Below, piece after piece: positions 20,448 to 35,451 of a stretch of 64,000 bases of DNA. The stretch's first letter is position 1. Each line of letters begins with the position of its first letter. Source of the DNA: a virus; UHGV virus genome UHGV-0236300; one strand, 5' to 3'. The notes under the pieces were generated by a model, which did not search any database, was not told the origin of the DNA, and worked only from the letters and a program-made list of their open reading frames with translations. The position numbers were made by a program, and so were the translations under genes.

Positions 20448-20637
20448 GCTTAAATCTGCATGGAACATTGCTGTGGGTGATGAGATCCGCATCCCTGGTG
20501 GGAAGACCGTTATGAAGATATCTCGTATTGAATACGAAGGCGACCGTGTATTCCACATCTTTGCAGAAGATGGTCGGGAAATTTATGTACAAGCGGGCTC
20601 TCACATCTATATCCGTAAGAAAGGGGATGACAAATGA
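20434..20637 (+). CDS. hypothetical protein
   Basis: ORF overlapping its neighbours (coupled). Confidence 0.5.
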   Translation: MQMFKLKSAWNIAVGDEIRIPGGKTVMKISRIEYEGDRVFHIFAEDGREIYVQAGSHIYIRKKGDDK

Positions 20638-20963
20638 CAGAGATCATTATTTCAACTGCAGGGTATGTATTCCTGACAATCATTGCTCTGACCATTTTGG
20701 TGGCGGTATATGGATTTGTTATTCTACCTATTCTTGAGACAATTAGTTTGTGTCGGTGTTGGAGAAAGGCTTACGGTCCACAGCCGTGGAGGGACTGGCC
20801 CCACCTGGTTCGCATAGCGTTCTCTTATGCTTATGATCACGCCAGCAGTGCATGCATAACCGGGTATCACGCTCACAATTGGAACTGGGAGGGGTTGGGT
20901 AGATGGAATGTTATAAAGACCATACCTCTACGTATGCACAAGCCTAAAAACAAAGACAGTTGA
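20634..20963 (+). CDS. putative membrane protein
   Basis: N-terminal hydrophobic segment GYVFLTIIALTILVAVYGFVILPIL. Confidence 0.5.
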   Translation: MTEIIISTAGYVFLTIIALTILVAVYGFVILPILETISLCRCWRKAYGPQPWRDWPHLVRIAFSYAYDHASSACITGYHAHNWNWEGLGRWNVIKTIPLRMHKPKNKDS

Positions 20964-21274
20964 TACTTGAAAATCCCTGGCACATCAAGTATAAGGAGGA
21001 TTTCTAAAATGGACTTCCTCCTTTTGATATTTTACCTGGCCGGATATTTTAAAATTCTTAGAAAATCAGAAAATGGATCGAAAACTAAAATGGATTTTTC
21101 AAGACAGGCGCGATAAGATGTGCTGCTCATTCTATCGTTCGCACCGTACTTTAAGTTACTATTCCAGATTTTCCGCACATACTCTCACCCTTCTACCAGA
21201 ACTTTCCCAGCTTACCTTTGACCCTTTATAACAATAAACCCATTATTCTCAGTAGGTTTTGATACATCTCTCTC

Positions 21275-21440
21275 AGTACTCGATCTGTTTTTCGTTTCAA
21301 AGATTGAATTTTCTGAAAATTTTTCTCGATAAATTTCTTAGTACTCGATCTGTTTTTCGTTTTCTGAATCAGATTTTCTGGAAATCGTTCCGGAGCTCGA
21401 CCTGAAATTTTTGGGGACGAAATCGATTTTTCGTTTTCGG
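21275..21440. repeat. AT-rich tandem repeats (about 65-bp period; core TCGATCTGTTTTTCGTTT)
   Basis: AGTACTCGATCTGTTTTTCGTTT at ~21275 and ~21340, degenerate third copy ~21420; iteron-like. Confidence 0.6.
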
Positions 21441-21554
21441 AAATGGATTTTTAAAATTTGTATATGGAAATACTTAAGGAGGTATTATTTTATATAGAAT
21501 TGTCACGGTAGGTAATTAGCATGCTAACTAAATTTATGAAATGCGAAAAGTTCT

Positions 21555-21780
21555 CATTTAGAATTTTGAATGATAATCATTCTCGTTTGCAGAATAACGG
21601 GCACCCCCGGTGATTGTCTCCCGGCCCCTGTTGCCCCGGCTTGTTATTATAGTATCACACAGGACAAAGAAAGCAAGGATTTTTTGCATAAATTTTTAAA
21701 TGATAATGATAACCGTTCTCATTTTATGCAGCGCCCATCCCCGGTGGTTGTCTCCCCCGTCACCGGTGCCTGCCGTCCTT
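21555..21780. repeat. pair of GC-rich ~90-bp direct repeats in an AT-rich, ORF-poor region
   Basis: AATGATAAT...CCCCGGTGATTGTCTCCCGGCCCC versus AATGATAATGATAA...CCCCGGTGGTTGTCTCCCCCGTCACCGG; ACCTGGCGGGGCC also recurs at ~21800 and ~21862. Confidence 0.55.
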
Positions 21781-21941
21781 TCGATAGGTATATTGTGCCA
21801 CCTGGCGGGGCCGCTGTCAACACTTTTCAAAAAAATTCTAACCTGATGCGCTAACCGTTGCAACCTGGCGGGGCCAGCCTGGCAGGGCTATGCTATAGGG
21901 TAGGCAACAACTGAAGAGGAGGTACAAAAATAAAAGGTAAT

Positions 21942-22103
21942 ATGATCCCTGGAAATGTAGCGATTAATGACGCTGAGGCTATCGCCCTGGTTGAAAAGGC
22001 TATGGCGGGAGCGTTGGAACATAAAGAAGAGTACGAAAAAATGATGGTTAACCTGGCAGGGGCGGCGGCTGGAGAATTCTGCCCAAAAAATAATTCTAAC
22101 TAA
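21942..22103 (+). CDS. small hypothetical protein (53 aa)
   Basis: ORF below the track cut-off (MIPGNVAINDAEAIALVEKAMAG...); weak SD. Confidence 0.3.
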   Translation: MIPGNVAINDAEAIALVEKAMAGALEHKEEYEKMMVNLAGAAAGEFCPKNNSN

Positions 22104-22106
22104 TGG

Positions 22107-22134
22107 TTGACAGCTCGGATAGTTCTGTTATTCT
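22107..22134 (+). promoter_or_regulatory. candidate sigma70 promoter (TTGACA-N16-TATTCT)
   Basis: Consensus -35 with moderate -10, upstream of gene 22187. Confidence 0.4.
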
Positions 22135-22186
22135 TATCCTCGCAAGGTGAACAACACCACACTAATTAACAGAGAGGATAAAAATC

Positions 22187-22384
22187 ATGAACGCCTACGG
22201 AATTAAAGTACGTCGCAACACTCGCCAGGCCGTCACCGATCAAATGATTTGCCAGGTGGACGTAACCATCAACAACGGGCAAGGCCTTTATAAATTCCGT
22301 CGCGGTCAGAGCTACACCCGGCAACAGCTTAATCGTTGCGCCCTGACAAAAGGCCAGATCAACCACTGGTTTAATAAAAAATAA
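22187..22384 (+). CDS. hypothetical small basic protein
   Basis: ORF with SD GAGAGGA upstream. Confidence 0.55.
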   Translation: MNAYGIKVRRNTRQAVTDQMICQVDVTINNGQGLYKFRRGQSYTRQQLNRCALTKGQINHWFNKK

Positions 22385-22387
22385 GTA

Positions 22388-22416
22388 TTGACATACAGTC
22401 TGACACCAAATACACT
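22388..22416 (+). promoter_or_regulatory. candidate sigma70 promoter (TTGACA-N17-TACACT)
   Basis: Consensus -35, upstream of gene 22449. Confidence 0.45.
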
Positions 22417-22448
22417 AAAAGCACAAAAGACACTAAGAGGATAAAATC

Positions 22449-22847
22449 ATGAAAACCACTACCTTTAATTTTGATAATGCGGACTTTTCTTTTTCTGATG
22501 TCAAGAACTGCCGCCGTGATCGTGGATTTTACAAGGCCTATAATCTGGTGGGCCTGGACGATGACAATAATTTGCACGAAGTAGCTGAGATCCGGTATTA
22601 TGCCGCCGCCAGCGGGAACACTCAATACTGCGTTTTTTGGATTCACGACAACAAGAACAATAAGTACGGTTATACTGGCGGGAAGGCGAGCGGTCACGGT
22701 TACGATAAAGCTAATGCAGCACTTGAGAGCGCATTAAATGCTATGGGGATCACTGCCAACGGCTGGATCTATGAAGAAGAGTTTTTGTCGGCACTTGCTA
22801 ACCACCTGGGCTATAAAAAGCACATTGTAACATGCGCCCACGAATAA
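22449..22847 (+). CDS. hypothetical protein
   Basis: ORF with SD AAGAGGA upstream. Confidence 0.6.
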   Translation: MKTTTFNFDNADFSFSDVKNCRRDRGFYKAYNLVGLDDDNNLHEVAEIRYYAAASGNTQYCVFWIHDNKNNKYGYTGGKASGHGYDKANAALESALNAMGITANGWIYEEEFLSALANHLGYKKHIVTCAHE

Positions 22848-22853
22848 AAATTG

Positions 22854-22881
22854 TTGACACGCTGCAAAATTCAAGTAAACT
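22854..22881 (+). promoter_or_regulatory. candidate sigma70 promoter (TTGACA-N16-TAAACT) followed by a 5'-UTR hairpin
   Basis: Consensus -35; hairpin GGCGGGAA-TGT-TTCCCGCC at ~22892-22910 before gene 22930. Confidence 0.45.
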
Positions 22882-22929
22882 AATCACAAAAGGCGGGAAT
22901 GTTTCCCGCCAACACAAAGGAAAAAGATC

Positions 22930-23334
22930 ATGAATAAGAACGTACGCCGCATCATGAATGAACTGGCAAACGATGAAAAAATTATTGATATGCATTTGGT
23001 GAACATTTGCCGCCGTTGTGTAACATATAACAACCGCGCCGCAAAAGCGCGTGAGATGAACGCAAAAGGCACCTTAAAGCCCTTCCAGGTGGTGGTAAAG
23101 GCCATCAAAGATGTAACTAATACGGCAAACCAGGTACAGGGGAACACCAACGAGAGTACCGATATTGATCCGGCTTACATCATGAAACGGATCCGGACCT
23201 GCAAGAACAAAGAGCAAGTGTATAACGTCATAGACTGGTTGGATTCTATGGGCGACGTGGTGTACAATAGGTTTTCTGCAGCTATCGAGATCCAGCTTGA
23301 CAGGTTGGACGGGAAAGTACTGAAAACTTATTAA
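22930..23334 (+). CDS. hypothetical protein
   Basis: ORF with SD AAGGAAAAAG upstream. Confidence 0.6.
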   Translation: MNKNVRRIMNELANDEKIIDMHLVNICRRCVTYNNRAAKAREMNAKGTLKPFQVVVKAIKDVTNTANQVQGNTNESTDIDPAYIMKRIRTCKNKEQVYNVIDWLDSMGDVVYNRFSAAIEIQLDRLDGKVLKTY

Positions 23335-23382
23335 GTTTATTTTTAGATGGCCTTGACTCCAGGGCCATCAATAAAGTAAACT
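23335..23382. repeat. repeated intergenic element, copy 1 (T-tract + palindrome ATGGCC-TTGACTCCAG-GGCCAT + TAAACT)
   Basis: Near-identical to 23955-24003; embeds a TTGACT-N18-TAAACT promoter-like arrangement. Confidence 0.6.
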
Positions 23383-23414
23383 AGTCTCAACTAAGCGAAA
23401 AAGGGGGCTTTAAG

Positions 23415-23534
23415 ATGAGCACTACACGCCAATACACAAAGGTAACTATTATCGTTTGCGTTGTCGGTTACATCCTGGCGCAAATGTTAATGAGTAGCGC
23501 CAACAGTTTTGCAAAATTTTTCTTAAATTTTTAA
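23415..23534 (+). CDS. small putative membrane protein (39 aa)
   Basis: ORF below the track cut-off; SD AAAGGGGG; hydrophobic core VTIIVCVVGYILAQMLM. Confidence 0.35.
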   Translation: MSTTRQYTKVTIIVCVVGYILAQMLMSSANSFAKFFLNF

Positions 23535-23562
23535 TTGACAAGCTAACCCAAATCAGTATACT
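23535..23562 (+). promoter_or_regulatory. sigma70 promoter (TTGACA-N16-TATACT) followed by a 5'-UTR hairpin
   Basis: Consensus hexamers; CGGGAA-AAC-TTCCC hairpin ~23575-23588; upstream of gene 23614. Confidence 0.55.
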
Positions 23563-23613
23563 TAAGCACGTAAACGGGAAAACTTCCCAGAACACACAAA
23601 AGGAGAAAACACC

Positions 23614-23946
23614 ATGACTACTATGACCGCCGCAGAAAAAGCTATTCAGGTTGCCGCACTGAAAAAACAGATCGCAGACCTTGAGAACAAGATCGATAAC
23701 TTTGAAATCGACGAGGACAAGTACGACGAAAACTATGATGAATGGTTAGACGAGGTCTACGGCGAAATCATGATCGGAAACATTTCTTTTCTTCCGTCGC
23801 GTATCCTCAAGGAGCTAGATCCTATCGCTTACCGCTGCGGATTTAGCGACTACATCGACAGCCTGGATATTGAGGACGATGAAGAGTACCAAGAATTGCA
23901 AACAGAGTTGGAAGAAGCAAAAGAAGAGCTTGCAGAACTGGAATAA
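23614..23946 (+). CDS. hypothetical acidic protein
   Basis: ORF with SD AAAGGAGAAAA upstream; highly acidic C-terminal half. Confidence 0.6.
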   Translation: MTTMTAAEKAIQVAALKKQIADLENKIDNFEIDEDKYDENYDEWLDEVYGEIMIGNISFLPSRILKELDPIAYRCGFSDYIDSLDIEDDEEYQELQTELEEAKEELAELE

Positions 23947-23954
23947 AACGAGTA

Positions 23955-24003
23955 AATTTATTTTTAGATGGCCTTGACTCCAGGGCCATCAATAAAGTAA
24001 ACT
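23955..24003. repeat. repeated intergenic element, copy 2
   Basis: Same T-tract + ATGGCC...GGCCAT palindrome + TAAACT as at 23335. Confidence 0.6.
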
Positions 24004-24041
24004 TTACACTGTTAACACTGAACTAATGAGGAGTTAAAACC

Positions 24042-24287
24042 ATGGCAGCACTAATCACCAAATATTATGCGCCTACCAACACCAAAAGCGCCCGTATCAT
24101 GGTAAAAGGCTTCGGACGTAAAAAGGTCTACACCTGGGATTATGCCTTAGATATGGAAGACAACTACACCAACGCAATGACCGATTTTATTAATGATCTG
24201 AATAAACAGATCTTAACCGACTACAAAGTGACCGATATTGCCTACGTCGGGGAAGGCGGGATCTGTTTTGTGGGCATTGTGAAATAG
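24042..24287 (+). CDS. hypothetical protein
   Basis: ORF with SD GAGGAG upstream. Confidence 0.55.
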   Translation: MAALITKYYAPTNTKSARIMVKGFGRKKVYTWDYALDMEDNYTNAMTDFINDLNKQILTDYKVTDIAYVGEGGICFVGIVK

Positions 24288-24337
24288 TTATTTTTTCGGT
24301 GGTCCTGGCTGCAGGGCCATCTATAAAGATAATTTAT
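24288..24337. repeat. repeated intergenic element, copy 3 (degenerate)
   Basis: T-tract + GGTCCTGGCTGCAGGGCCAT + TATAAAG; diverged relative of the elements at 23335 and 23955. Confidence 0.45.
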
Positions 24338-24362
24338 TAACACCATGAAAGGAGAAAGTAAC

Positions 24363-24716
24363 ATGATCAGCGGTGCAAGTTTTATCATTGGCGCTATTGC
24401 TACGGCTTTAATTGTAAACAAGATCCAGGATAAAAAGGAAAGAGGAAGCACCGCCCTTGCAGAATATCCATTTTGGGCATTCAACGATAACGAAGATTAT
24501 ATTATAAAGTATAAAAATAAAGAAGGTGACCAAGTAACACCGCGACCGATCCCGGCTTACAAGATGCAGGAAACACTATACCGCCTGGAGGCGGGGGGCG
24601 CAAAAATTGTGGACTTTTGGGGATACGATCACACAGATCAGGAAGTTATAAAGCGCCGTATCCGGGCTATTCAGGCCAATATTGAAGTTAGCAAGGGGGG
24701 AATATATGAAGATTAA
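24363..24716 (+). CDS. hypothetical protein with N-terminal transmembrane anchor
   Basis: Track ORF 24345..24716; ATG 24363 after SD AAAGGAGAAAG; N-terminal ISGASFIIGAIATALIV. Confidence 0.55.
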   Translation: MISGASFIIGAIATALIVNKIQDKKERGSTALAEYPFWAFNDNEDYIIKYKNKEGDQVTPRPIPAYKMQETLYRLEAGGAKIVDFWGYDHTDQEVIKRRIRAIQANIEVSKGGIYED

Positions 24717-24903
24717 TTTTGAGAAGATTGTAAAGCGATCTCATGATTCCGAAGAGTTGCCGGAACGCCGCCAGCGTAACAATAAACTGAATAAGCCAAA
24801 AAGATTTGGAAAGATCTGGCGAAATCATTATGATCGTAAATTGCCTGGCCTACTTTTGGAACGTGAACGACAGGCAGAACGATACCGCCATAAAGACAAA
24901 TAA
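24706..24903 (+). CDS. hypothetical small basic protein
   Basis: Track ORF 24682..24903; ATG 24706 after a G-rich SD; Arg/Lys-rich. Confidence 0.5.
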   Translation: MKINFEKIVKRSHDSEELPERRQRNNKLNKPKRFGKIWRNHYDRKLPGLLLERERQAERYRHKDK

Positions 24904-24910
24904 CAACCAA

Positions 24911-24940
24911 CGCCCCGCCATTGTGCGGGGCTTTTTATTT
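24911..24940 (+). terminator. rho-independent terminator
   Basis: GCCCCGC-CATTGT-GCGGGGC hairpin followed by TTTTTATTT. Confidence 0.7.
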
Positions 24941-25083
24941 CTATTCTACGAATAGCGCCCCTGGTTGGCCCTGTAAGCGCCAAAAAGGCCCCCACCTATG
25001 CAATCGCCCCTTTAACCTGAAAACATCGCCCAGGGCCGTTTTATGGCGTTAAAAATATTATTGGCAGTGATTTTATTTAAAGC

Positions 25084-25111
25084 TTGACATCTTAAACAGG
25101 TTAGCTATACT
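25084..25111 (+). promoter_or_regulatory. sigma70 promoter (TTGACA-N16-TATACT)
   Basis: Consensus hexamers upstream of gene 25144. Confidence 0.55.
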
Positions 25112-25143
25112 AACCACATCAAAGAGAGAAAGGAGTAAACGCC

Positions 25144-25404
25144 ATGCGTAAATTAAAAAATTTTGATAAAGTTGATGTTATCCTGAATAATTTTTACTAC
25201 TGCAACAACAAGGCCATTTGGTGGCGTGATAGTTCCACCGATAAAGTCAAGGCGCGCTTTCTCCAGGGGCACTGGCAAGGCCGTCCAGTGATTAAAATCA
25301 TGGGGCAATTGGTAGCGTTTAAAAATTGCCGCCGTGTTGATGACGTTGAAGAGATTTTAAACATTTTGCGCCACAATAATTTAAAAAATAGTGTTGACAA
25401 GTAA
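25144..25404 (+). CDS. hypothetical protein
   Basis: ORF with SD AAAGGAG upstream. Confidence 0.55.
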   Translation: MRKLKNFDKVDVILNNFYYCNNKAIWWRDSSTDKVKARFLQGHWQGRPVIKIMGQLVAFKNCRRVDDVEEILNILRHNNLKNSVDK

Positions 25405-25421
25405 ATCTCGATAAGTATACT
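25394..25421 (+). promoter_or_regulatory. sigma70 promoter (TTGACA-N16-TATACT) followed by a 5'-UTR hairpin
   Basis: Consensus hexamers; CGGGAA-AAC-TTCCCG hairpin ~25434-25448; upstream of gene 25479. Confidence 0.55.
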
Positions 25422-25478
25422 TAAACACGTAAACGGGAAAACTTCCCGCCACTAACAAAGAAAATAGGAGAAAATATC

Positions 25479-26102
25479 ATGACCACCGTTAACATTACCA
25501 CAGGTTGCAATTTATCTTTCGACGTGCTGACCGACGAACAAAAAGAAAAAGCTATTGAAATGGTCCGCGAAAGAGAAGAACACAGCGGAGAGGATTTTTT
25601 CGCAGAAAGTGTAATTGAATATTATAAAGAACAAGTTTTTCCAGAGTACGGCCTTGAAGATACCGAAGTACATTGGTCCGGCTTTTGGTGCCAGGGTGAC
25701 GGCGCGTCAATCAGTGCTGAAAACGTGGATTTAGAAAAATTCTTGCGTAAAGTAAAGGCCCTGACCAAGTTCCGATCAATTCGTCACTTGTTCGGCACAA
25801 TGCACGATGGCGAGTTATCAGCCAGTATTGAACGCGACAAGTACAGCCATTACAGCCATGAAAACACTGTAAGCGGATACATTGATACCACCTGGCTAGA
25901 TCTGACCGCCAAACAAGAAAACAAAGTGGAAGACCTGGAAGAGCTGATCACCGAGACGGTACGGGAGCTATCCCGCAAGGTTTATGTAGACCTGGAGGAG
26001 TCCTATCTTGAACAGTTTACTACCGAAAACCTGATCGGCCTTATTGAAGCCAATGATTGGCGGTTTGATGTGGATGAATATGGTGAGATGAGTTTTTCAT
26101 AA
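25479..26102 (+). CDS. hypothetical protein
   Basis: ORF with SD AGGAGAAAA upstream; acidic; HWSGFWCQGDGA segment of unknown family. Confidence 0.6.
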   Translation: MTTVNITTGCNLSFDVLTDEQKEKAIEMVREREEHSGEDFFAESVIEYYKEQVFPEYGLEDTEVHWSGFWCQGDGASISAENVDLEKFLRKVKALTKFRSIRHLFGTMHDGELSASIERDKYSHYSHENTVSGYIDTTWLDLTAKQENKVEDLEELITETVRELSRKVYVDLEESYLEQFTTENLIGLIEANDWRFDVDEYGEMSFS

Positions 26103-26110
26103 ATAAAGTG

Positions 26111-26138
26111 TTGCAATAATCTAAAAACCTGCTATATT
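26111..26138 (+). promoter_or_regulatory. candidate sigma70 promoter (TTGCAA-N16-TATATT)
   Basis: Near-consensus hexamers upstream of gene 26158. Confidence 0.4.
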
Positions 26139-26157
26139 TAAAACTCAAGGGGGTGAG

Positions 26158-26457
26158 ATGACTTGCCTCCCACAAAACAAAGAGGAAAACATCATGAAAC
26201 GTCTTGACCAGCTCAAACTAGTTCAGTACATGGCTTACAGAATTCTTGAAGTCCAAAAAGGTAGCAAAAAAGAAGTTTGCGAGAAAGCGTACAAGATCTT
26301 TACTCGCAAAAAAGACGATTGGATGTTACGCCAGACCAAAAAAGCCGATATCTTGGGGTACCTGGAAGAAGAGATCCGGCTTGAAGAACAAGAAGAGATC
26401 CGCCGTAGTGAGGCAGATTATCAGGCAGCTTGGGAAAACTGGATGAGCAACAAATAA
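26158..26457 (+). CDS. hypothetical protein
   Basis: ORF with SD GGGGGTGAG upstream; alternative start at ATG 26194. Confidence 0.55.
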   Translation: MTCLPQNKEENIMKRLDQLKLVQYMAYRILEVQKGSKKEVCEKAYKIFTRKKDDWMLRQTKKADILGYLEEEIRLEEQEEIRRSEADYQAAWENWMSNK

Positions 26458-26523
26458 TACAACAGGTTGCATGGTCAGGGGCGATAAAGCCCCTTGATCA
26501 CATAAAAATTATGCTATCCCTTG

Positions 26524-26552
26524 TTGACAGGGATCGGCAGTTTTGCTATATT
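26524..26552 (+). promoter_or_regulatory. sigma70 promoter (TTGACA-N17-TATATT)
   Basis: Consensus -35 and near-consensus -10 upstream of gene 26602. Confidence 0.5.
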
Positions 26553-26601
26553 CTTTTTTGAAGGGAAGTTGTAAGAAAATTAACTAAGAGGTAAAAACAC
26601 C

Positions 26602-27021
26602 ATGAACATTAAATCTGATAATCCGGCATATAGCTTTGATAACGCTTTTTGTCACGGTCCGGCGGCGAAAGGATTCGAAATCGATGGTAAACTAATTATT
26701 GTCAATGTTGACGGGGAAGAGGTTGCAGTATATCCGGTGGCAGACGTTAAAAGCCGTCTACAATGCCGCATAGATGTTACCGCCTATCAGCTTGATCCGG
26801 TCCGGGTAGTTGCCCTGGTCCTGGAAGAAGAAATTAAAGCAATGCACCACAGCAACAAGTTTATTGGTGACGCTCAAGATAATATGCAGGTATGCCGCTA
26901 TAAAGTTAATGAAGTGCTTAAAGAGTACGGCTATAAGGATTTAATGATCAAGCGCGATGAAAAATTCCGCTACCGTAACGACCTGGCAAATCGGATTTTT
27001 GAAATATACGAATCATTATAA
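26602..27021 (+). CDS. hypothetical protein
   Basis: ORF with SD AAGAGGTAAAAA upstream; followed by a terminator. Confidence 0.6.
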   Translation: MNIKSDNPAYSFDNAFCHGPAAKGFEIDGKLIIVNVDGEEVAVYPVADVKSRLQCRIDVTAYQLDPVRVVALVLEEEIKAMHHSNKFIGDAQDNMQVCRYKVNEVLKEYGYKDLMIKRDEKFRYRNDLANRIFEIYESL

Positions 27022-27039
27022 TTTCTTAACTGAATTATC

Positions 27040-27068
27040 AAGGGGCTTAAAGGCCCCTTTCTTTTTGT
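27040..27068 (+). terminator. rho-independent terminator
   Basis: AAGGGGC-TTAAAG-GCCCCTT hairpin followed by TCTTTTTG; closes the plus-strand cassette array. Confidence 0.7.
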
Positions 27069-27526
27069 CTGCTCTTCTCCTACCATAAACGGCCCTACCT
27101 GGCAAGTGGAATAATTGACTAGCCATCAATCCCACATACTGTACAAATATACATGGAAAATAACTATTGCATAATCTTTCATTGTGTGGTAGCAGGGCCA
27201 TTTTTACCCGTTTTCTCTCCCAAAAGTGCACGTAATGCCGCTATTGCACAAATTTTAACCTGATGCACATCTCCAATATCTTGTCAACAACTAAAAATCT
27301 TTATAAGTCATACACTTACACAGCATCGAAAGCGTGTTCTACGCGAAAAATCGAGTATAACTATAGCCGCCAGATCTCAGAATTCACGTACGCACGCCAT
27401 TCTATAGTCTGCAAAGTATTTATTCCAACCACAGAATAACGGAATAGTCAATACCTGCATAAAATAATTATTCGTGTAAACTGCATAACATAAATCAGCT
27501 CAGGTGTCAACATTTTTCGTAAACAG

Positions 27527-28322
27527 TTCGAAATTGTCACGATAAGTTATTATACACAGAGAAATCTTTAGTCGTCTAATGTTTACTGTACATTACTATA
27601 CTGACTGGAATCATTAGATGACTAAGAGAAAGATAAGAAATAATTAATAATGTAATTGTTTTACCTGTAACAATAAGGCAACTATGCAAACGAATGGCAT
27701 GGCGCGACGGAGTCGCGACATAATATAAAAGCAGTAACAATCACCCCCGTGATAGTTTTTCTGCAATCTATTATTCAGATCATAGTTGCCTTGTATTTAG
27801 TTAATCATGACATAACAAGCAAGGCAACTATAGATCTTCTAATAGTTGCCCTGCTTTTATATTATGTCATAGATTGTTATCTTGTTAATTGTTTTCATGC
27901 AAACGAATGTCATGGCTTATCATCTCTGTGTAAACAATTTGGGCGTAAACTATTCAGATGAAAACTATTCAGGCGTAAACAGTCTATGCGTAAACAGTGA
28001 GATATGGAATAGTAACAGCCGTTATTGTGTCATATTGTGTCATTGTGTCAAAGGTAAAAGTGTCAAAAGTGACAATTTTGTCACATTGTGTCAGACAAGT
28101 TTTTCTCCTCTTTGTCAAGTGCCGCATGAAAAATTTACAAACTGGTATGGTAGCATTTTTGCGGCCCTGTTTACATTCAGGAATGTATGTATAATCCTTG
28201 CTGTGTGGGCGTTTAGACGTCTGGACGGTCAGAAGTCAGCAGGTCAATATCTAATCTATTGGTTGCTAACTATATCCCACACAAATAGTAAGAAATATAA
28301 TTGTTATGTGCGTAAACAGTAA
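27527..28322. repeat. iteron-like repeats (core GCGTAAACAGT) in a noncoding region
   Basis: (T/G)CGTAAACAGT at ~27527, ~27974, ~27988, ~28310; GCGTAAACT at ~27944; AAGGCAACTAT and its reverse complement recur at ~27673, ~27783, ~27821, ~27843. Confidence 0.55.
28025..28120. repeat. array of TTGTGTCA-type short repeats
   Basis: TTGTGTCAT x2, TTGTGTCAA, GTGTCAAAAGTGACA, TTGTCACA, TTGTGTCAG, TTGTCAAG within ~95 bp. Confidence 0.55.
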
Positions 28323-28622
28323 CTCATGTTATCAATCCCTGTATGTATCGCCAGTGGTGCGCATAATGGGTATTATGTTAAATTGCCCGTAATGATAACC
28401 ATTCTCACAATGATAGGTATTCTCATTCATCCCCACAAGATAGATTGCAAATGTTGTGCCACTGTGTGAACGGCCTCACCTATTAATTTGCCTCACTGCC
28501 TCGATATTTGAGAATTATTATAAAAAATGAGAAGTATTCCCATTCCGTCCGCCTGGCAGCACTCCTGTAGGACAAGCACAACATCGGGGTATAACTGGAC
28601 CTGTTCAGATATTTCTGGCTGA

Positions 28623-29162
28623 CTCTTCAGGCCTGTGTGGGAAAAGCCAACCTCTCCGGCGGCGGGGAGGGGGGTCAATTAAAAAATTTACGTGGTGTAT
28701 GAAGCGCTCTTCAGGCAAGGTGTGTATTATGGGATGAAACCCTCTTCAGGTGATGATATTTGTGGGGGGATATTTGCTGGAAAGCCAGATATGACGGGGC
28801 TCCCGGCGGGGATGGGGTAGTACAGACAGGGAAAATGTGGGGATGTGGTGGGAGTAAATTGATCAAGTAGGTAGGATATGGAATATGTTACAAGTATGTT
28901 AAATATAGAGGTAGGATATTTGTGAGATTTGTGTGTAAAATCAAAGACTTAGGTGGTGTTGTGGTATTTTCTATAAATAATTCAAGTTTAATAGGTGATA
29001 TTTGTCTCCATCCACTTTGTGTGGTAAACAGCTCCTAATTGAATTGGTTTACAAGTGTATATAAAGTATACAAATTAAAGATATAAGAAACCCCCCTCCC
29101 CCTTCGGCTACCATTCACCTTTTCCTCTGACTGGTACTTAAACACTTATTCAGACTCTTCAG
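28623..29162. repeat. dispersed 9-mer CTCTTCAGG (4 copies here, 5th at ~29814)
   Basis: Exact 9-mer at ~28623, ~28707, ~28742, ~29154 and ~29814; about 0.5 copies expected by chance in 64 kb. Confidence 0.55.
28664..29101. repeat. 12-bp G-rich inverted repeat pair (GGGGAGGGGGGT / ACCCCCCTCCCC) flanking a GT-skewed segment
   Basis: Perfect reverse complements at ~28664-28675 and ~29090-29101; the intervening plus strand is almost devoid of C and holds G-runs. Confidence 0.5.
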
Positions 29163-29526
29163 GTTATCACCCCTATACTATATGGCAGTGACTGGTGTCC
29201 TCCGGCCCCTCTTTCGCCACCCGTCCGCTTCGCCATGCTAATGCCATAGCCAAAGGTTCGGTTGTTCACCCTGTTCACTCAGGTGTATCTCCATACCCCT
29301 TCAAACCGAAGAGAACAGAAAACCCGAATTACTCGGTAAAAGAAAAGAGAAGAACTTAATTTTATCAAGATAGGCAAGAATGTCAAGGGATGACTGCTCA
29401 CTAAACAAGCAAACAGTCATGTGTGGTAGGTAAGTAACTGGGTTGGTAGGAAATTTAGTTGGAAGATGTTATAGGTGCCTCCAGAACCTTAGCTGGGCAG
29501 CTAAACCTGCAAAGCAGACTTGTGTG

Positions 29527-29808
29527 TCAGTCCAAAGGTTCATCTACTACTTCACTGAAATCAATGTTCAGGGTCTCTTCCCAACCATCAATCTCAGCAC
29601 CAGAGTAGAGATCTTTAGGGTCTACATCAAGGGCTTCCGCAACAGCATCTATATTTAACACTTCTGGCAGGTAAGATTCATCGAATTCAAGGTAAATCAG
29701 GCCACGAGTGTTGTCAGTCCCACCAAATATTTCTATTTTCATGAAATCTCCTCTGGAAATGAGAGTGTGAACAGGGTTTATACGTTCCAATACGCTGGAA
29801 TTATGCAC
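29527..29808 (-). CDS. hypothetical acidic protein
   Basis: ORF with GTG start; very acidic composition. Confidence 0.5.
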   Translation of the reverse strand: MHNSSVLERINPVHTLISRGDFMKIEIFGGTDNTRGLIYLEFDESYLPEVLNIDAVAEALDVDPKDLYSGAEIDGWEETLNIDFSEVVDEPLD

Positions 29809-29862
29809 GTTTGCCTCTTCAGGCCATGCTTTAGCATGATAAACTTATGTGGGCTCGGTGCT

Positions 29863-30048
29863 TCATAGTCTCCCACCTCTGAACTCTTCGTGCTCGGGCA
29901 TAATAGAGAACCAGATGGCTATGATATCTTCCCACGTTAGGTCATCAGCCTCAGGATCCACCTGGGACGGAGATAGAGAATCCTCAGAATTGAAGTTTTC
30001 CTCTATCACTCCTTCAGATGTCTCTGTAGATGCATGTGTGTTGGTCAT
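29863..30048 (-). CDS. hypothetical acidic protein
   Basis: Short acidic ORF. Confidence 0.4.
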   Translation of the reverse strand: MTNTHASTETSEGVIEENFNSEDSLSPSQVDPEADDLTWEDIIAIWFSIMPEHEEFRGGRL

Positions 30049-30546
30049 GTTCCACCCGTGAGTATTCCGGCAACATGTTTAAAAAATAAGACTTTATCAA
30101 CATATGGCCGGAACGTGTCGATGCCATAAGCATATTCCTGCAACAGCCGCTATGGACGTAATGATCATCAGGATCACCACTAAAACCTCTGACAATGTTT
30201 TCATTGTGTATTCCATATTATCCAAACAATGTGTGGATACTATCACAGGGGCGGTAATGTGTCAACAGAAGCGCCGCGAGGGTTTGGTTAAAATCCGAGC
30301 GTATGGTGATTTGGGTCAAAACGGGCGTGCGTTCTCGCTACGCTCGAAATAGAGAGTTGTTTGTAGGATGACTTTAAACGCTCTGTAAGGAGATTAATTG
30401 TCTAAGGTATGGAATCGTGCACCAGATAAAGAAAAGGACGCCACAGAGCGTCCTAGGTGCCTTAAATTTGATATTTTGCTATACCCATGAGGGCTTGTCT
30501 AGGTTGGAGTAACTGAAGGGGGTCAAAAGGTGACTGTCAAAATCTT

Positions 30547-35063: not shown

Positions 35064-35375
35064 TCAAAAGTCAATCTTTACTTTACCTTTTCCCTTACCT
35101 TTCTTTCCACCGCATTTAGCCAACTGGCGTGCTGCAACATCCACCATACGGTCAGTTGCCTCGTAAGCATCGCTACCTTTAGCTTTGGCGATAACTTCTT
35201 TCCCAGAATTGTCAAAAATGAAAGCCATAACTTCCTGGTGATCATTTTCAACTTTTACACTCACACGTGCATAGTTGGCAGAGGGGTGCAAACGCTCCAG
35301 CTTGGACATTTTGTGGGAAATGAAAGACACCATACCTTCAGTGATCTCTACGTTGCCAGTGATTTCAATCTGCAT
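35064..35375 (-). CDS. hpf: ribosome hibernation promoting factor / RaiA-like protein
   Basis: MQIEITGNVEITEGM...VSVKVEN...AKAKGSDAYEATDRMVDVAARQLAK parallels E. coli HPF MQLNITGNNVEITEAL...; basic C-terminal tail. Confidence 0.8.
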   Translation of the reverse strand: MQIEITGNVEITEGMVSFISHKMSKLERLHPSANYARVSVKVENDHQEVMAFIFDNSGKEVIAKAKGSDAYEATDRMVDVAARQLAKCGGKKGKGKGKVKIDF

Positions 35376-35422
35376 AACGTGCTCCTTTTAAAGAAGAGGG
35401 AACCAAACCCTCTTTGAAAATA

Positions 35423-35451
35423 ATGATACTAAAGATCAAATGTTGTGTCAA
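35423..35451 (-). promoter_or_regulatory. hpf: sigma70 promoter (minus strand, TTGACA-N17-TATCAT) with a 5'-UTR hairpin
   Basis: Minus-strand TTGACA at 35451-35446, TATCAT at 35428-35423; hairpin AGAGGG-N7-CCCTCT (35395-35413) then SD AAGGAG before the hpf ATG. Confidence 0.5.

Follow-up and report, generated by a model that had tools for sequence, protein, structure and literature searches.

A promoter-dense cassette array with leader stem-loops and a repeated intercistronic hairpin in the genome of an rV5-like Vequintavirus

UHGV-0236300 is a virus genome, of which a stretch of 64,000 nucleotides (hereafter the window, meaning the whole stretch) was analysed; judged by its sequence, it is an rV5-like Vequintavirus (Vequintavirinae), a phage of Escherichia coli. 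Between positions 22100 and 27070, the + strand carries an array of small open reading frames (ORFs) with closely spaced sigma70 promoters, and the repeated regulatory sequences of this array serve as crossover points for the gain, loss and re-wiring of gene cassettes. The region is probably the promoter-dense, gene-content-variable ('hyperplastic') early region of the phage, and its organization is reminiscent of the promoter early stem-loop elements (PeSLs) known from T4-type phages.

The explanation that we favour, and which we consider likely as a whole, is that of a PeSL-like cassette array with 5′-protecting leader stem-loops and an RNase III-type intercistronic element, here termed D1. 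The twelve small conserved genes would be packaged as self-contained cassettes (AT-rich stretch, sigma70 promoter, short leader, strong Shine–Dalgarno sequence (SD) and ORF), and terminators at 24912 and 27040 would divide them into two units. Host RNA polymerase would fire all of the array promoters immediately after infection; the G-rich stem-loops of four leaders, together with that of a phage hpf leader elsewhere in the window, would shield the mRNAs from 5′-end-dependent decay by RppH and RNase E; and, with lower confidence, three D1 hairpins separating cistrons that have no strong promoter to themselves would act as RNase III-type processing or 3′-stabilizing signals. As regards crossover in repeated motifs, the array works like the PeSL cassettes of T4-type phages.

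Part of this layout was already on record. Region 22100–27070 displays 90–98 % nucleotide identity to many Vequintavirus coliphages (V18, FV3, rV5, ECP26/32, B9-1 and others). The + strand of the window matches the minus strand of rV5, and the region is equivalent to the last part of its transcription unit 'genes 10-1-238-164', which ends at a non-coding block ahead of gene 163. The rV5 genome paper (Kropinski et al. 2013, PMC3606486, Table S4) gives predicted sigma70 promoters and terminators as hexamers only. Seven of the eight array promoters are orthologues of rV5 P195A, P195, P194, P192, P186, P185 and P164, with sequences matching Table S4, the terminator at 27040 is orthologous to t164, and several of the promoters are annotated as regulatory features in NC_011041; as Table S4 lists the same sites, the promoter array is itself a published prediction. 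The leader hairpins, the D1 repeat, the promoter of the ORF184 cassette and the turnover of cassettes are, in contrast, unmentioned in that paper. New here are the PeSL-like modular shuffling outside T4-type phages, the consistent set of leader stem-loops and the structured intercistronic element D1.

Promoter array, cassette turnover and genes

The pattern TTGACA-N16/17-TANANT occurs at 13 sites in the 64-kb window against an expectation of 0.51, and none of 100 shuffled sequences reached 13, which rules out a chance origin for these promoter-like sites. Six of the 13 fall within 22388–26552. A sequence-only reading of the window had proposed at least eight near-consensus promoters in the array, and all eight that it listed are present at the coordinates given. 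Seven of them have a perfect TTGACA, a 16- or 17-nt spacer and a −10 hexamer of TATACT, TATATT, TAAACT, TACACT or TATTCT (10–11 of 12 consensus positions), while the 26111 promoter scores 9 of 12 with an extended −10. The same reading assigned one promoter to each small ORF; the modular, individually promoted layout is real, but there are eight strong promoters for twelve ORFs. AT-rich stretches (ATAAAAATTG, AAATTTTTAA, TTTAAAAAATAGTG, TTTATTTAAAGC and AAAAAATAAGTA), as read from the sequence, precede the −35 hexamers. The promoters are as follows.

22107..22134, + strand: sigma70 promoter TTGACA-16-TATTCT (TGn), rV5 P195A orthologue, without leader hairpin
22388..22416, + strand: sigma70 promoter TTGACA-17-TACACT, rV5 P195 orthologue, without leader hairpin
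22854..22881, + strand: sigma70 promoter TTGACA-16-TAAACT, rV5 P194 orthologue
23535..23562, + strand: sigma70 promoter TTGACA-16-TATACT, rV5 P192 orthologue
25084..25111, + strand: sigma70 promoter TTGACA-16-TATACT, rV5 P186 orthologue, without leader hairpin
25394..25421, + strand: sigma70 promoter TTGACA-16-TATACT, rV5 P185 orthologue; its −35 region AGTGTTG is the left YP-6 crossover
26111..26138, + strand: promoter TTGCAA-16-TATATT with TGn extended −10, of the rV5 ORF184 cassette (P184); right YP-6 crossover
26524..26552, + strand: sigma70 promoter TTGACA-17-TATATT (TGn), rV5 P164 orthologue, without leader hairpin

Mapping of indels between the window and nine relatives revealed that these phages differ by whole cassettes; the modules behave as units, which bears out the cassette-like layout seen in the sequence-only reading. 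Four of the five indels within 22100–27070 cross over in repeated regulatory motifs (D1, −35, SD/ATG leader or terminator stem-loops). Exactly 23383–23952, comprising the 39-aa ORF, P192 and the 110-aa ORF, is missing from ECP26 and ECP32, with the crossover inside the D1 repeat; YP-6 is without 25397–26100, which holds P185 with its hairpin and the 207-aa ORF, the crossover falling at the AGTGTTG of two −35 regions; and nimi is without 26496–27040 (P164 and the 139-aa ORF), its crossover lying within two AGGGGC...GCCCCT stem-loops. Almost the same cassette as in nimi is absent from FV3, with no obvious homology at the boundaries. The window itself is without a segment of ~4.6 kb (rV5 ORF184–166) that is present in all nine relatives. 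The junction of this deletion joins the ORF184 promoter and leader to the coding sequence of ORF165, which places the ORF165 homologue under their control; the junction sequence was sought in 50,697 phage records and occurs in none of them. The terminators, the stem-loop at the left nimi crossover and the deletion junction are listed here.

24912..24941, + strand: intrinsic terminator GCCCCGC-loop-GCGGGGC followed by TTTTTATTT; ends the first transcription unit
26179..26199, + strand: junction of the 4.6-kb deletion, a 21-nt SD/ATG repeat, AAAGAGGAAAACATCATGAAA
26472..26500, + strand: stem-loop (−18.1 kcal/mol) without U-tract; left nimi crossover
27040..27069, + strand: intrinsic terminator (rV5 t164), hairpin at 27040–27059; ends the array; right nimi crossover

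Both terminators, which the sequence-only reading had described as strong and placed at 24911 and 27040, are real, each consisting of a G+C-rich hairpin directly followed by a U-tract; in the first, the hairpin (24912–24931) has seven G–C pairs and a folding energy of −15.9 kcal/mol.

Every ORF of the array has an SD 7–9 nt ahead of its ATG and a strong match to a PHROG family (E values 1e-28 to 1e-94), and the ORFs are therefore real, conserved genes. All are of 'unknown function' in PHROGs, Pfam and NCBIfam returned no match, and we found no homology of any array ORF to a characterized protein.

22187..22384, + strand: ORF of 65 aa, basic (isoelectric point (pI) 10.7), phrog_7119
22449..22847, + strand: ORF of 132 aa, phrog_7028
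22930..23334, + strand: ORF of 134 aa, phrog_13245
23415..23534, + strand: ORF of 39 aa, hydrophobic, rV5 ORF193 homologue
23614..23946, + strand: ORF of 110 aa, very acidic (pI 4.1, 33 D+E), phrog_9294
24042..24287, + strand: ORF of 81 aa, phrog_3199
24363..24716, + strand: ORF of 117 aa with an N-terminal hydrophobic segment, phrog_12734
24706..24903, + strand: ORF of 65 aa, very basic; begins before the 117-aa ORF ends
25144..25404, + strand: ORF of 86 aa, phrog_11241
25479..26102, + strand: ORF of 207 aa, acidic (pI 4.4), phrog_5162
26194..26457, + strand: ORF of 87 aa, phrog_11701, rV5 ORF165 homologue
26602..27021, + strand: ORF of 139 aa, phrog_12277, rV5 ORF164; absent from FV3 and nimi

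Single cassettes are also common to unrelated phages. The 207-aa protein is conserved in Vequintaviruses and shares 57–61 % identity with proteins on ~350-kb contigs (jumbo coliphages), with invariant motifs GFWxQGDGAS and YxHE, while the 139-aa ORF displays ~80 % nucleotide identity to Phapecoctavirus-like phages; rV5 has a few ORFs in common with RB49. The model of the 207-aa protein is confident (pLDDT 86.7) and has no fold match in the PDB; the protein may therefore represent a new fold family.

Leader stem-loops and the D1 hairpin

Four array leaders, and the leader of hpf on the other strand, carry a stem-loop just downstream of the predicted transcription start.

22892..22910, + strand: leader stem-loop GGCGGGAAtgtTTCCCGCC, 8 bp, −14.6 kcal/mol, z −4.3, starting 10 nt past the −10 (P194)
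23575..23589, + strand: leader stem-loop cGGGAAaacTTCCCa, 5 bp, weak (−5.9 kcal/mol, no better than shuffles) (P192)
25434..25448, + strand: leader stem-loop CGGGAAaacTTCCCG, 6 bp in the window (P185)
26149..26170, + strand: leader stem-loop GGGGGUGAGaugaCUUGCCUCC, 9 bp including three G·U pairs, after the 26111 promoter; missed by the sequence-only reading
35394..35451, − strand: promoter TTGACA-17-TATCAT (rV5 P144) and leader stem-loop AGAGGGtttggttCCCTCT, ahead of phage hpf

The placement of these stems is uniform. In six modules, which represent three sequence types, the stem starts 9–11 nt past the −10; these are P194, P192, P185, 26111, hpf and a CGGGAA module of nimi, the fourth of that kind, which sits on a different cassette (P76). 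The stems would thus begin ~1–5 nt from the predicted 5′ end (~+2 to +6), where the 5′ ends are positions predicted from sequence on the assumption that transcription starts 7 nt past the −10.

The sequence-only reading had drawn attention to a CGGGAA-N3-TTCCCG-type hairpin in three leaders, and this observation is well founded: allowing at most one mismatch, its occurrences in the window are limited to 22894, 23575 and 25434, three where 0.08 would be expected. Its extension to the hpf leader (35394–35414, − strand) holds in part. The placement is the same and the relative L037 carries AGAGGGAAtggTTCCCTCT there, but AGAGGGtttggttCCCTCT of the window does not match the CGGGAA motif; grouping the hpf-leader hairpin with the GGGAA-N3-TTCCC hairpins, as a degenerate relative, is nevertheless defensible. 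The gene behind this leader (35076–35375, − strand) was correctly named, being an HPF/S30AE homologue (PF02482, E value 1.5e-12) with its own consensus promoter and leader hairpin.

Comparison among relatives shows which parts of the leader hairpins are kept. The P185 stem is an 8-bp GGCGGGAA..TTCCCGCC in most relatives and a U·G variant in L035, a more distant Vequintavirus, in which loops also vary (TGT vs ACA and AAC vs CAA) and the P192 stem shrinks to 4 bp. The P184 hairpin at 26111 exists in at least six sequence variants among the relatives, differing in sequence and length, with matched arm lengths and use of G·U pairs, and all of them fold (7–9 bp, −12 to −16 kcal/mol). Since the G·U and U·G variants pair only on the sense RNA, and since the loops vary while the stems are kept, a role at the RNA level is favoured over an operator. 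The sequence-only reading had left open whether the hairpin was a 5′ stabilizer of the mRNA or a shared operator, and of these two suggestions the former is strengthened and the latter weakened by the varied sequences found at the same position, the G·U pairs and the free loops. The best reading of the leader hairpins is that they would have a structural role in the RNA, most plausibly 5′ protection against RppH and RNase E.

Hairpins after consensus promoters are common in phages according to IMG/VR, where the stems were extended in 17/40 and 12/22 families compared with 0/18 for a non-pairing control. Four IMG/VR scans did not sustain GGGAA-N3-TTCCC as a special phage leader motif (40 families against 18 for the non-pairing, 6 for the reversed-arm and 22 for the other-hairpin patterns), and as the enrichment of the GGGAA core was only ~2-fold, the idea of a required sequence-specific factor was dropped. 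A reading of the leader hairpins as minus-strand terminators was likewise rejected: a scan flagged 22910..22892, yet the T-run is only TTTTGTG at this one copy and there is none at the others. In L035 (3235–3288, − strand), the P194 hairpin and window 22892–22910 are exact reverse complements (loop ACA in L035, TGT in the window), which looks like an inversion of the palindrome centre.

The second structured element, D1, is a 51-nt repeat with three copies (starting at 23332, 23953 and 24284) at gene boundaries, each running from the stop codon of the upstream ORF to 30–40 nt before the next ATG; it was missed by the sequence-only reading.

23332..23388, + strand: D1 copy 1, starting at the upstream stop codon; contains TTGACT-18-TAAACT; left ECP26/ECP32 crossover
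23953..24009, + strand: D1 copy 2, 98 % identical to copy 1; right ECP26/ECP32 crossover
24284..24340, + strand: D1 copy 3, 73 % identical; poor −35 (CTGGCT), both stems kept via compensatory and G·U changes

D1 folds into a 9-bp outer stem, a 2×3 internal loop, a 10-bp inner stem and a tetraloop (−23.6 kcal/mol, z −6.9). Across 22 distinct copies from ten genomes, the sample on which the pairing, strand and loop figures are based, pairing was retained in 98.3 % of cells compared with 39–56 % in slid controls, four pairs had changed on both sides and the asymmetric internal loop was conserved in every copy. The sense strand is the more stable in all 22 copies, by ~9 kcal/mol (−21.3 vs −12.5 kcal/mol for the antisense), on account of its many G·U pairs, which indicates transcribed RNA rather than duplex DNA. 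A covariance model detected only these three copies in the 64 kb and three or four per relative. As copy 3 lacks the −35, and as the promoter spacing in L035 becomes 20 nt (or 15) while the stems persist, the hairpin itself appears to be the selected feature of D1. The compensatory changes and the strand asymmetry support D1 as a candidate RNA element, and our best guess is that it may be an RNase III-type intercistronic processing or 3′-stabilizing signal. An Rfam covariance-model search of 20500–30500 returned 0 matches at E≤1.

Many temperate Pseudomonas phages (loci L113–L136; phiPSA1, L137:2501–2638; PP9W, L138:2501–2648) carry a conserved, unannotated ~150-nt leader just after a CI-like repressor gene, which ends in a long hairpin. 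The 10-bp inner stem of this hairpin, GATGGCCTTG-GNRA-CAGGGCCATC, is identical to the inner stem of D1 (GATGGCCUUG/CAGGGCCAUC), and an Rfam search gave no match for the Pseudomonas-phage leader element. By chance, ~2 matches to the inner-stem pattern would be expected and a single independent family was seen; the match may be a coincidence or a shared RNA module. It is a rather doubtful proposition that the leader stem-loops and D1 are undescribed cis-acting RNA elements forming, with host-type promoters, mobile cassettes outside the T4 lineage, and that the recurrence of the inner stem in Pseudomonas phages reflects a reused phage RNA module recognized by a conserved host factor.

Known systems and alternative explanations

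PeSLs were described in the T4-type phages RB49/phi1, PST and nt-1 (Arbiol et al. 2010, PMC2839356; Comeau et al. 2014, PMC4122927). They combine a strong sigma70 promoter, an AT-rich upstream region and a stem-loop over the −35 or just after the −10, number ~8 per 5 kb, flank ORFans in hyperplastic regions and mediate indels and mini-circles; their stem-loops are reported to be effective terminators in reporter assays. The array resembles them in having near-consensus sigma70 promoters behind AT-rich stretches, which lie among small ORFans where gene content varies and likewise number about eight per 5 kb, and in having indel crossovers between close relatives inside its motifs. Stem-loops in the PeSL positions accompany only about half of its promoters, after the −10 (22892, 23575, 25434 and 26149), and the three D1 copies place one over a −35-like hexamer. 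It differs in that it belongs to a Vequintavirus, whereas PeSLs have been described only in T4-type myoviruses; in that half of its promoters have no stem-loop; in that its stem-loops lack U-tracts and resemble RNA stability or processing elements rather than terminators; and in that SD/ATG leaders and true terminators also act as crossover sites. Our literature search found no paper connecting PeSLs with rV5-like phages.

The leader stem-loops are also reminiscent of the 5′-terminal stabilizing stem-loops of the E. coli ompA and papA mRNAs (Emory, Bouvet and Belasco 1992, as cited in PMC3997798). As far as that citation describes them, the likeness lies in a stable stem-loop a few nucleotides from the 5′ end (predicted, in the array) that may vary in sequence, and the difference in the recurrence of one core (GGGAA/TTCCC) in the array, where the 5′ ends are predicted only. 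For D1, the closest parallel may be the R1.1-type RNase III signals between the early genes of phage T7. In single-cut substrates of E. coli RNase III, an internal loop or bulge confines cleavage to one strand and a protective 3′ hairpin remains (PMC1540722); D1 agrees with the published features of such substrates in its size and internal loop. It is intercistronic in a putative host-polymerase operon, spans about two helical turns (19 bp = 9 + 10) with an asymmetric internal loop and −21 to −24 kcal/mol, and if it were cut, the upstream mRNA would end in a 3′ hairpin; unlike the T7 signals, it also has promoter-like hexamers and is known from sequence alone. A small leader hairpin just downstream of an early promoter further recalls the nut site of phage λ (boxA + boxB), but the array loops are 3 nt long and variable in contrast to the conserved pentaloop of nut, and 22100–27070 has no boxA-like match, so a nut/boxB reading was rejected.

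Several observations weigh against the favoured explanation. Leader hairpins occur at only four of the eight strong array promoters, being absent at 22107, 22388, 25084 and 26524, and most promoters elsewhere in the window are without one. The P192 hairpin is weak (z −1.05) and has decayed further in L035, bov10K2 has a stem-breaking change at P185, and the CGGGAA stems are invariant among close relatives and so yield no covariation signal; on the aligned P184 hairpin, where indels spoil the alignment, alifold detected no compensatory pair. We found no mapped transcription start, processing site or half-life in the literature for any Vequintavirus. D1 copies 1, 2 and 4 contain a promoter-like TTGACT/TTGACA-18-TAAACT and may therefore act as promoters. 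Finally, in the adjacent 4.6-kb segment, seven more cassette-sized indels (E1, E3, E4, E5, E6, E6b and E7) have only 6–8 nt of microhomology at their boundaries, and the regulatory repeats are thus preferred, but not exclusive, crossover sites.

The recurrence of a single core raises the question of operators, that is, whether the GGCGGGAA-N3-TTCCCGCC palindromes, at ~+5 to +23, are bound as DNA by a dimeric repressor, from the phage or the host, that jointly silences some of the early promoters. Such binding would explain a 19-bp perfect palindrome whose GGGAA/TTCCC core is shared by P194, P192, P185, nimi P76 and the L037 hpf leader, five modules that are not orthologous, the invariance of this core in 10 genomes while the flanks vary and the excess of the CGGGAA motif over expectation. 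It would not explain the hairpins of unrelated sequence at the same position (P184 and the hpf leader of the window), the U·G variant of L035 and the G·U-rich P184 stems, which are mismatches in duplex DNA, the freely variable spacer bases or the imperfect P192 half-site, which decays further in L035; moreover, the core is only ~2-fold commoner after phage promoters than control sequences, and P192 and P185 are plain paralogues (a 66-nt promoter and leader module with 80 % identity, 23535 vs 25394), so common descent accounts for part of the sharing. We therefore consider operators unlikely. Attenuators or insulators damping upstream read-through, as first proposed for PeSL stem-loops, seem even more improbable as the function of the leader hairpins and D1. 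The cassettes do lie downstream of other strong promoters with no terminator before 24912 and 27040, and the PeSL stem-loops terminate effectively in reporter assays (PMC2839356, PMC4122927), but no U-tract follows any leader hairpin or D1 copy (AACACAAAGG and AAUAAAGU come next), true terminators with U-tracts exist separately in the array, and a leader hairpin, lying downstream of its own promoter, would attenuate that promoter too.

Turning to D1, it could instead be mainly a weak sigma70 promoter of the PeSL type (TTGACT-18-TAAACT, with the −35 in the palindrome) for the three downstream ORFs, its hairpin being incidental or a DNA-level site for recombination or a regulator. In every relative, copies 1, 2 and 4 do carry TTGACT/TTGACA and TAAACT/TAAATT behind a T-rich, UP-like stretch, PeSLs with a stem-loop over the −35 have been described (PMC2839356, PMC4122927) and D1 is an actual crossover site. 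Nonetheless, copy 3 has CTGGCT, CTGGTT or CTGGTA in place of the −35, both stems of L035 remain paired despite the altered spacing, bases of the '−10' join in the compensatory pair changes and the sense strand is consistently the more stable; on balance, this interpretation appears improbable. A different kind of explanation places the function in the proteins, with the array as an anti-defence or host-takeover island whose ORFs inhibit host defence or machinery. This is possible, if tentative: the ORFs are small, accessory, individually promoted, variable between close relatives and in part common to unrelated coliphages, and two of the proteins are strongly acidic (110 aa, pI 4.1; 207 aa, pI 4.4), as DNA-mimic inhibitors often are, but none is homologous to any characterized protein, the 207-aa protein, the one modelled, has no fold match, and function is not identifiable from layout alone. 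Host takeover or anti-defence, as suggested in the sequence-only reading, is thus a reasonable guess for the role of the ORFs, which are candidates for the corresponding screens.

Should the PeSL-like account be correct, PeSL-style cassettes would be a general means for large lytic phages to swap accessory genes without disturbing their neighbours, rather than a peculiarity of T4-type phages, and two small RNA elements would probably set the stability of the early mRNAs. The array may also serve as an engineering map for rV5-like therapeutic phages, with natural cassette boundaries, a tolerated 4.6-kb deletion and strong portable promoters with leaders.

Flanking non-coding stretches

The non-coding stretches on either side of the array contain Fur-box-like sequences, AATGATAATCATTCTC, GATAATGATAACCGTTCTC and TAATGATAACCATTCTCA, at 21566–21585, 21698–21724 and 28390–28407, respectively. 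Allowing 3 mismatches to the 19-nt Fur consensus, GATAATGATAACCGTTCTC gives one match where 0.03 would be expected. The first two sites are kept in 9/9 relatives; the third is kept in three, these being the relatives with loci that extend so far. Both of the first two adjoin weak promoter-like sites, and each of these two Fur-box-like sequences is followed by a GC-rich unit, CCCCGGTG(A/G)TTGTCTCCC. Rfam gave no match for these regions, which could mark iron-responsive small transcripts.

Upstream of the array, 21266–21451 comprises three tandem-like copies of a non-coding ~65-nt unit (TCTCAGTACTCGATCTGTTTTTCGTTT...), where the rV5 annotation has doubtful small ORFs. The motifs CCTGGCGGGGCC and CCTGGCAGGGC recur at 21801–21890, 22055, 24955–25040 and 27085–27100, and a run of (A/T)CGCCC repeats lies between the 24912 terminator and the 25084 promoter. 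Downstream, the ~3 kb from 27070 to 30000 are without convincing ORFs and correspond to the 'non-coding' box of rV5, with short tandem repeats at 27930–27980 and 28023–28075 and a change in the sign of the GC skew near 30000.

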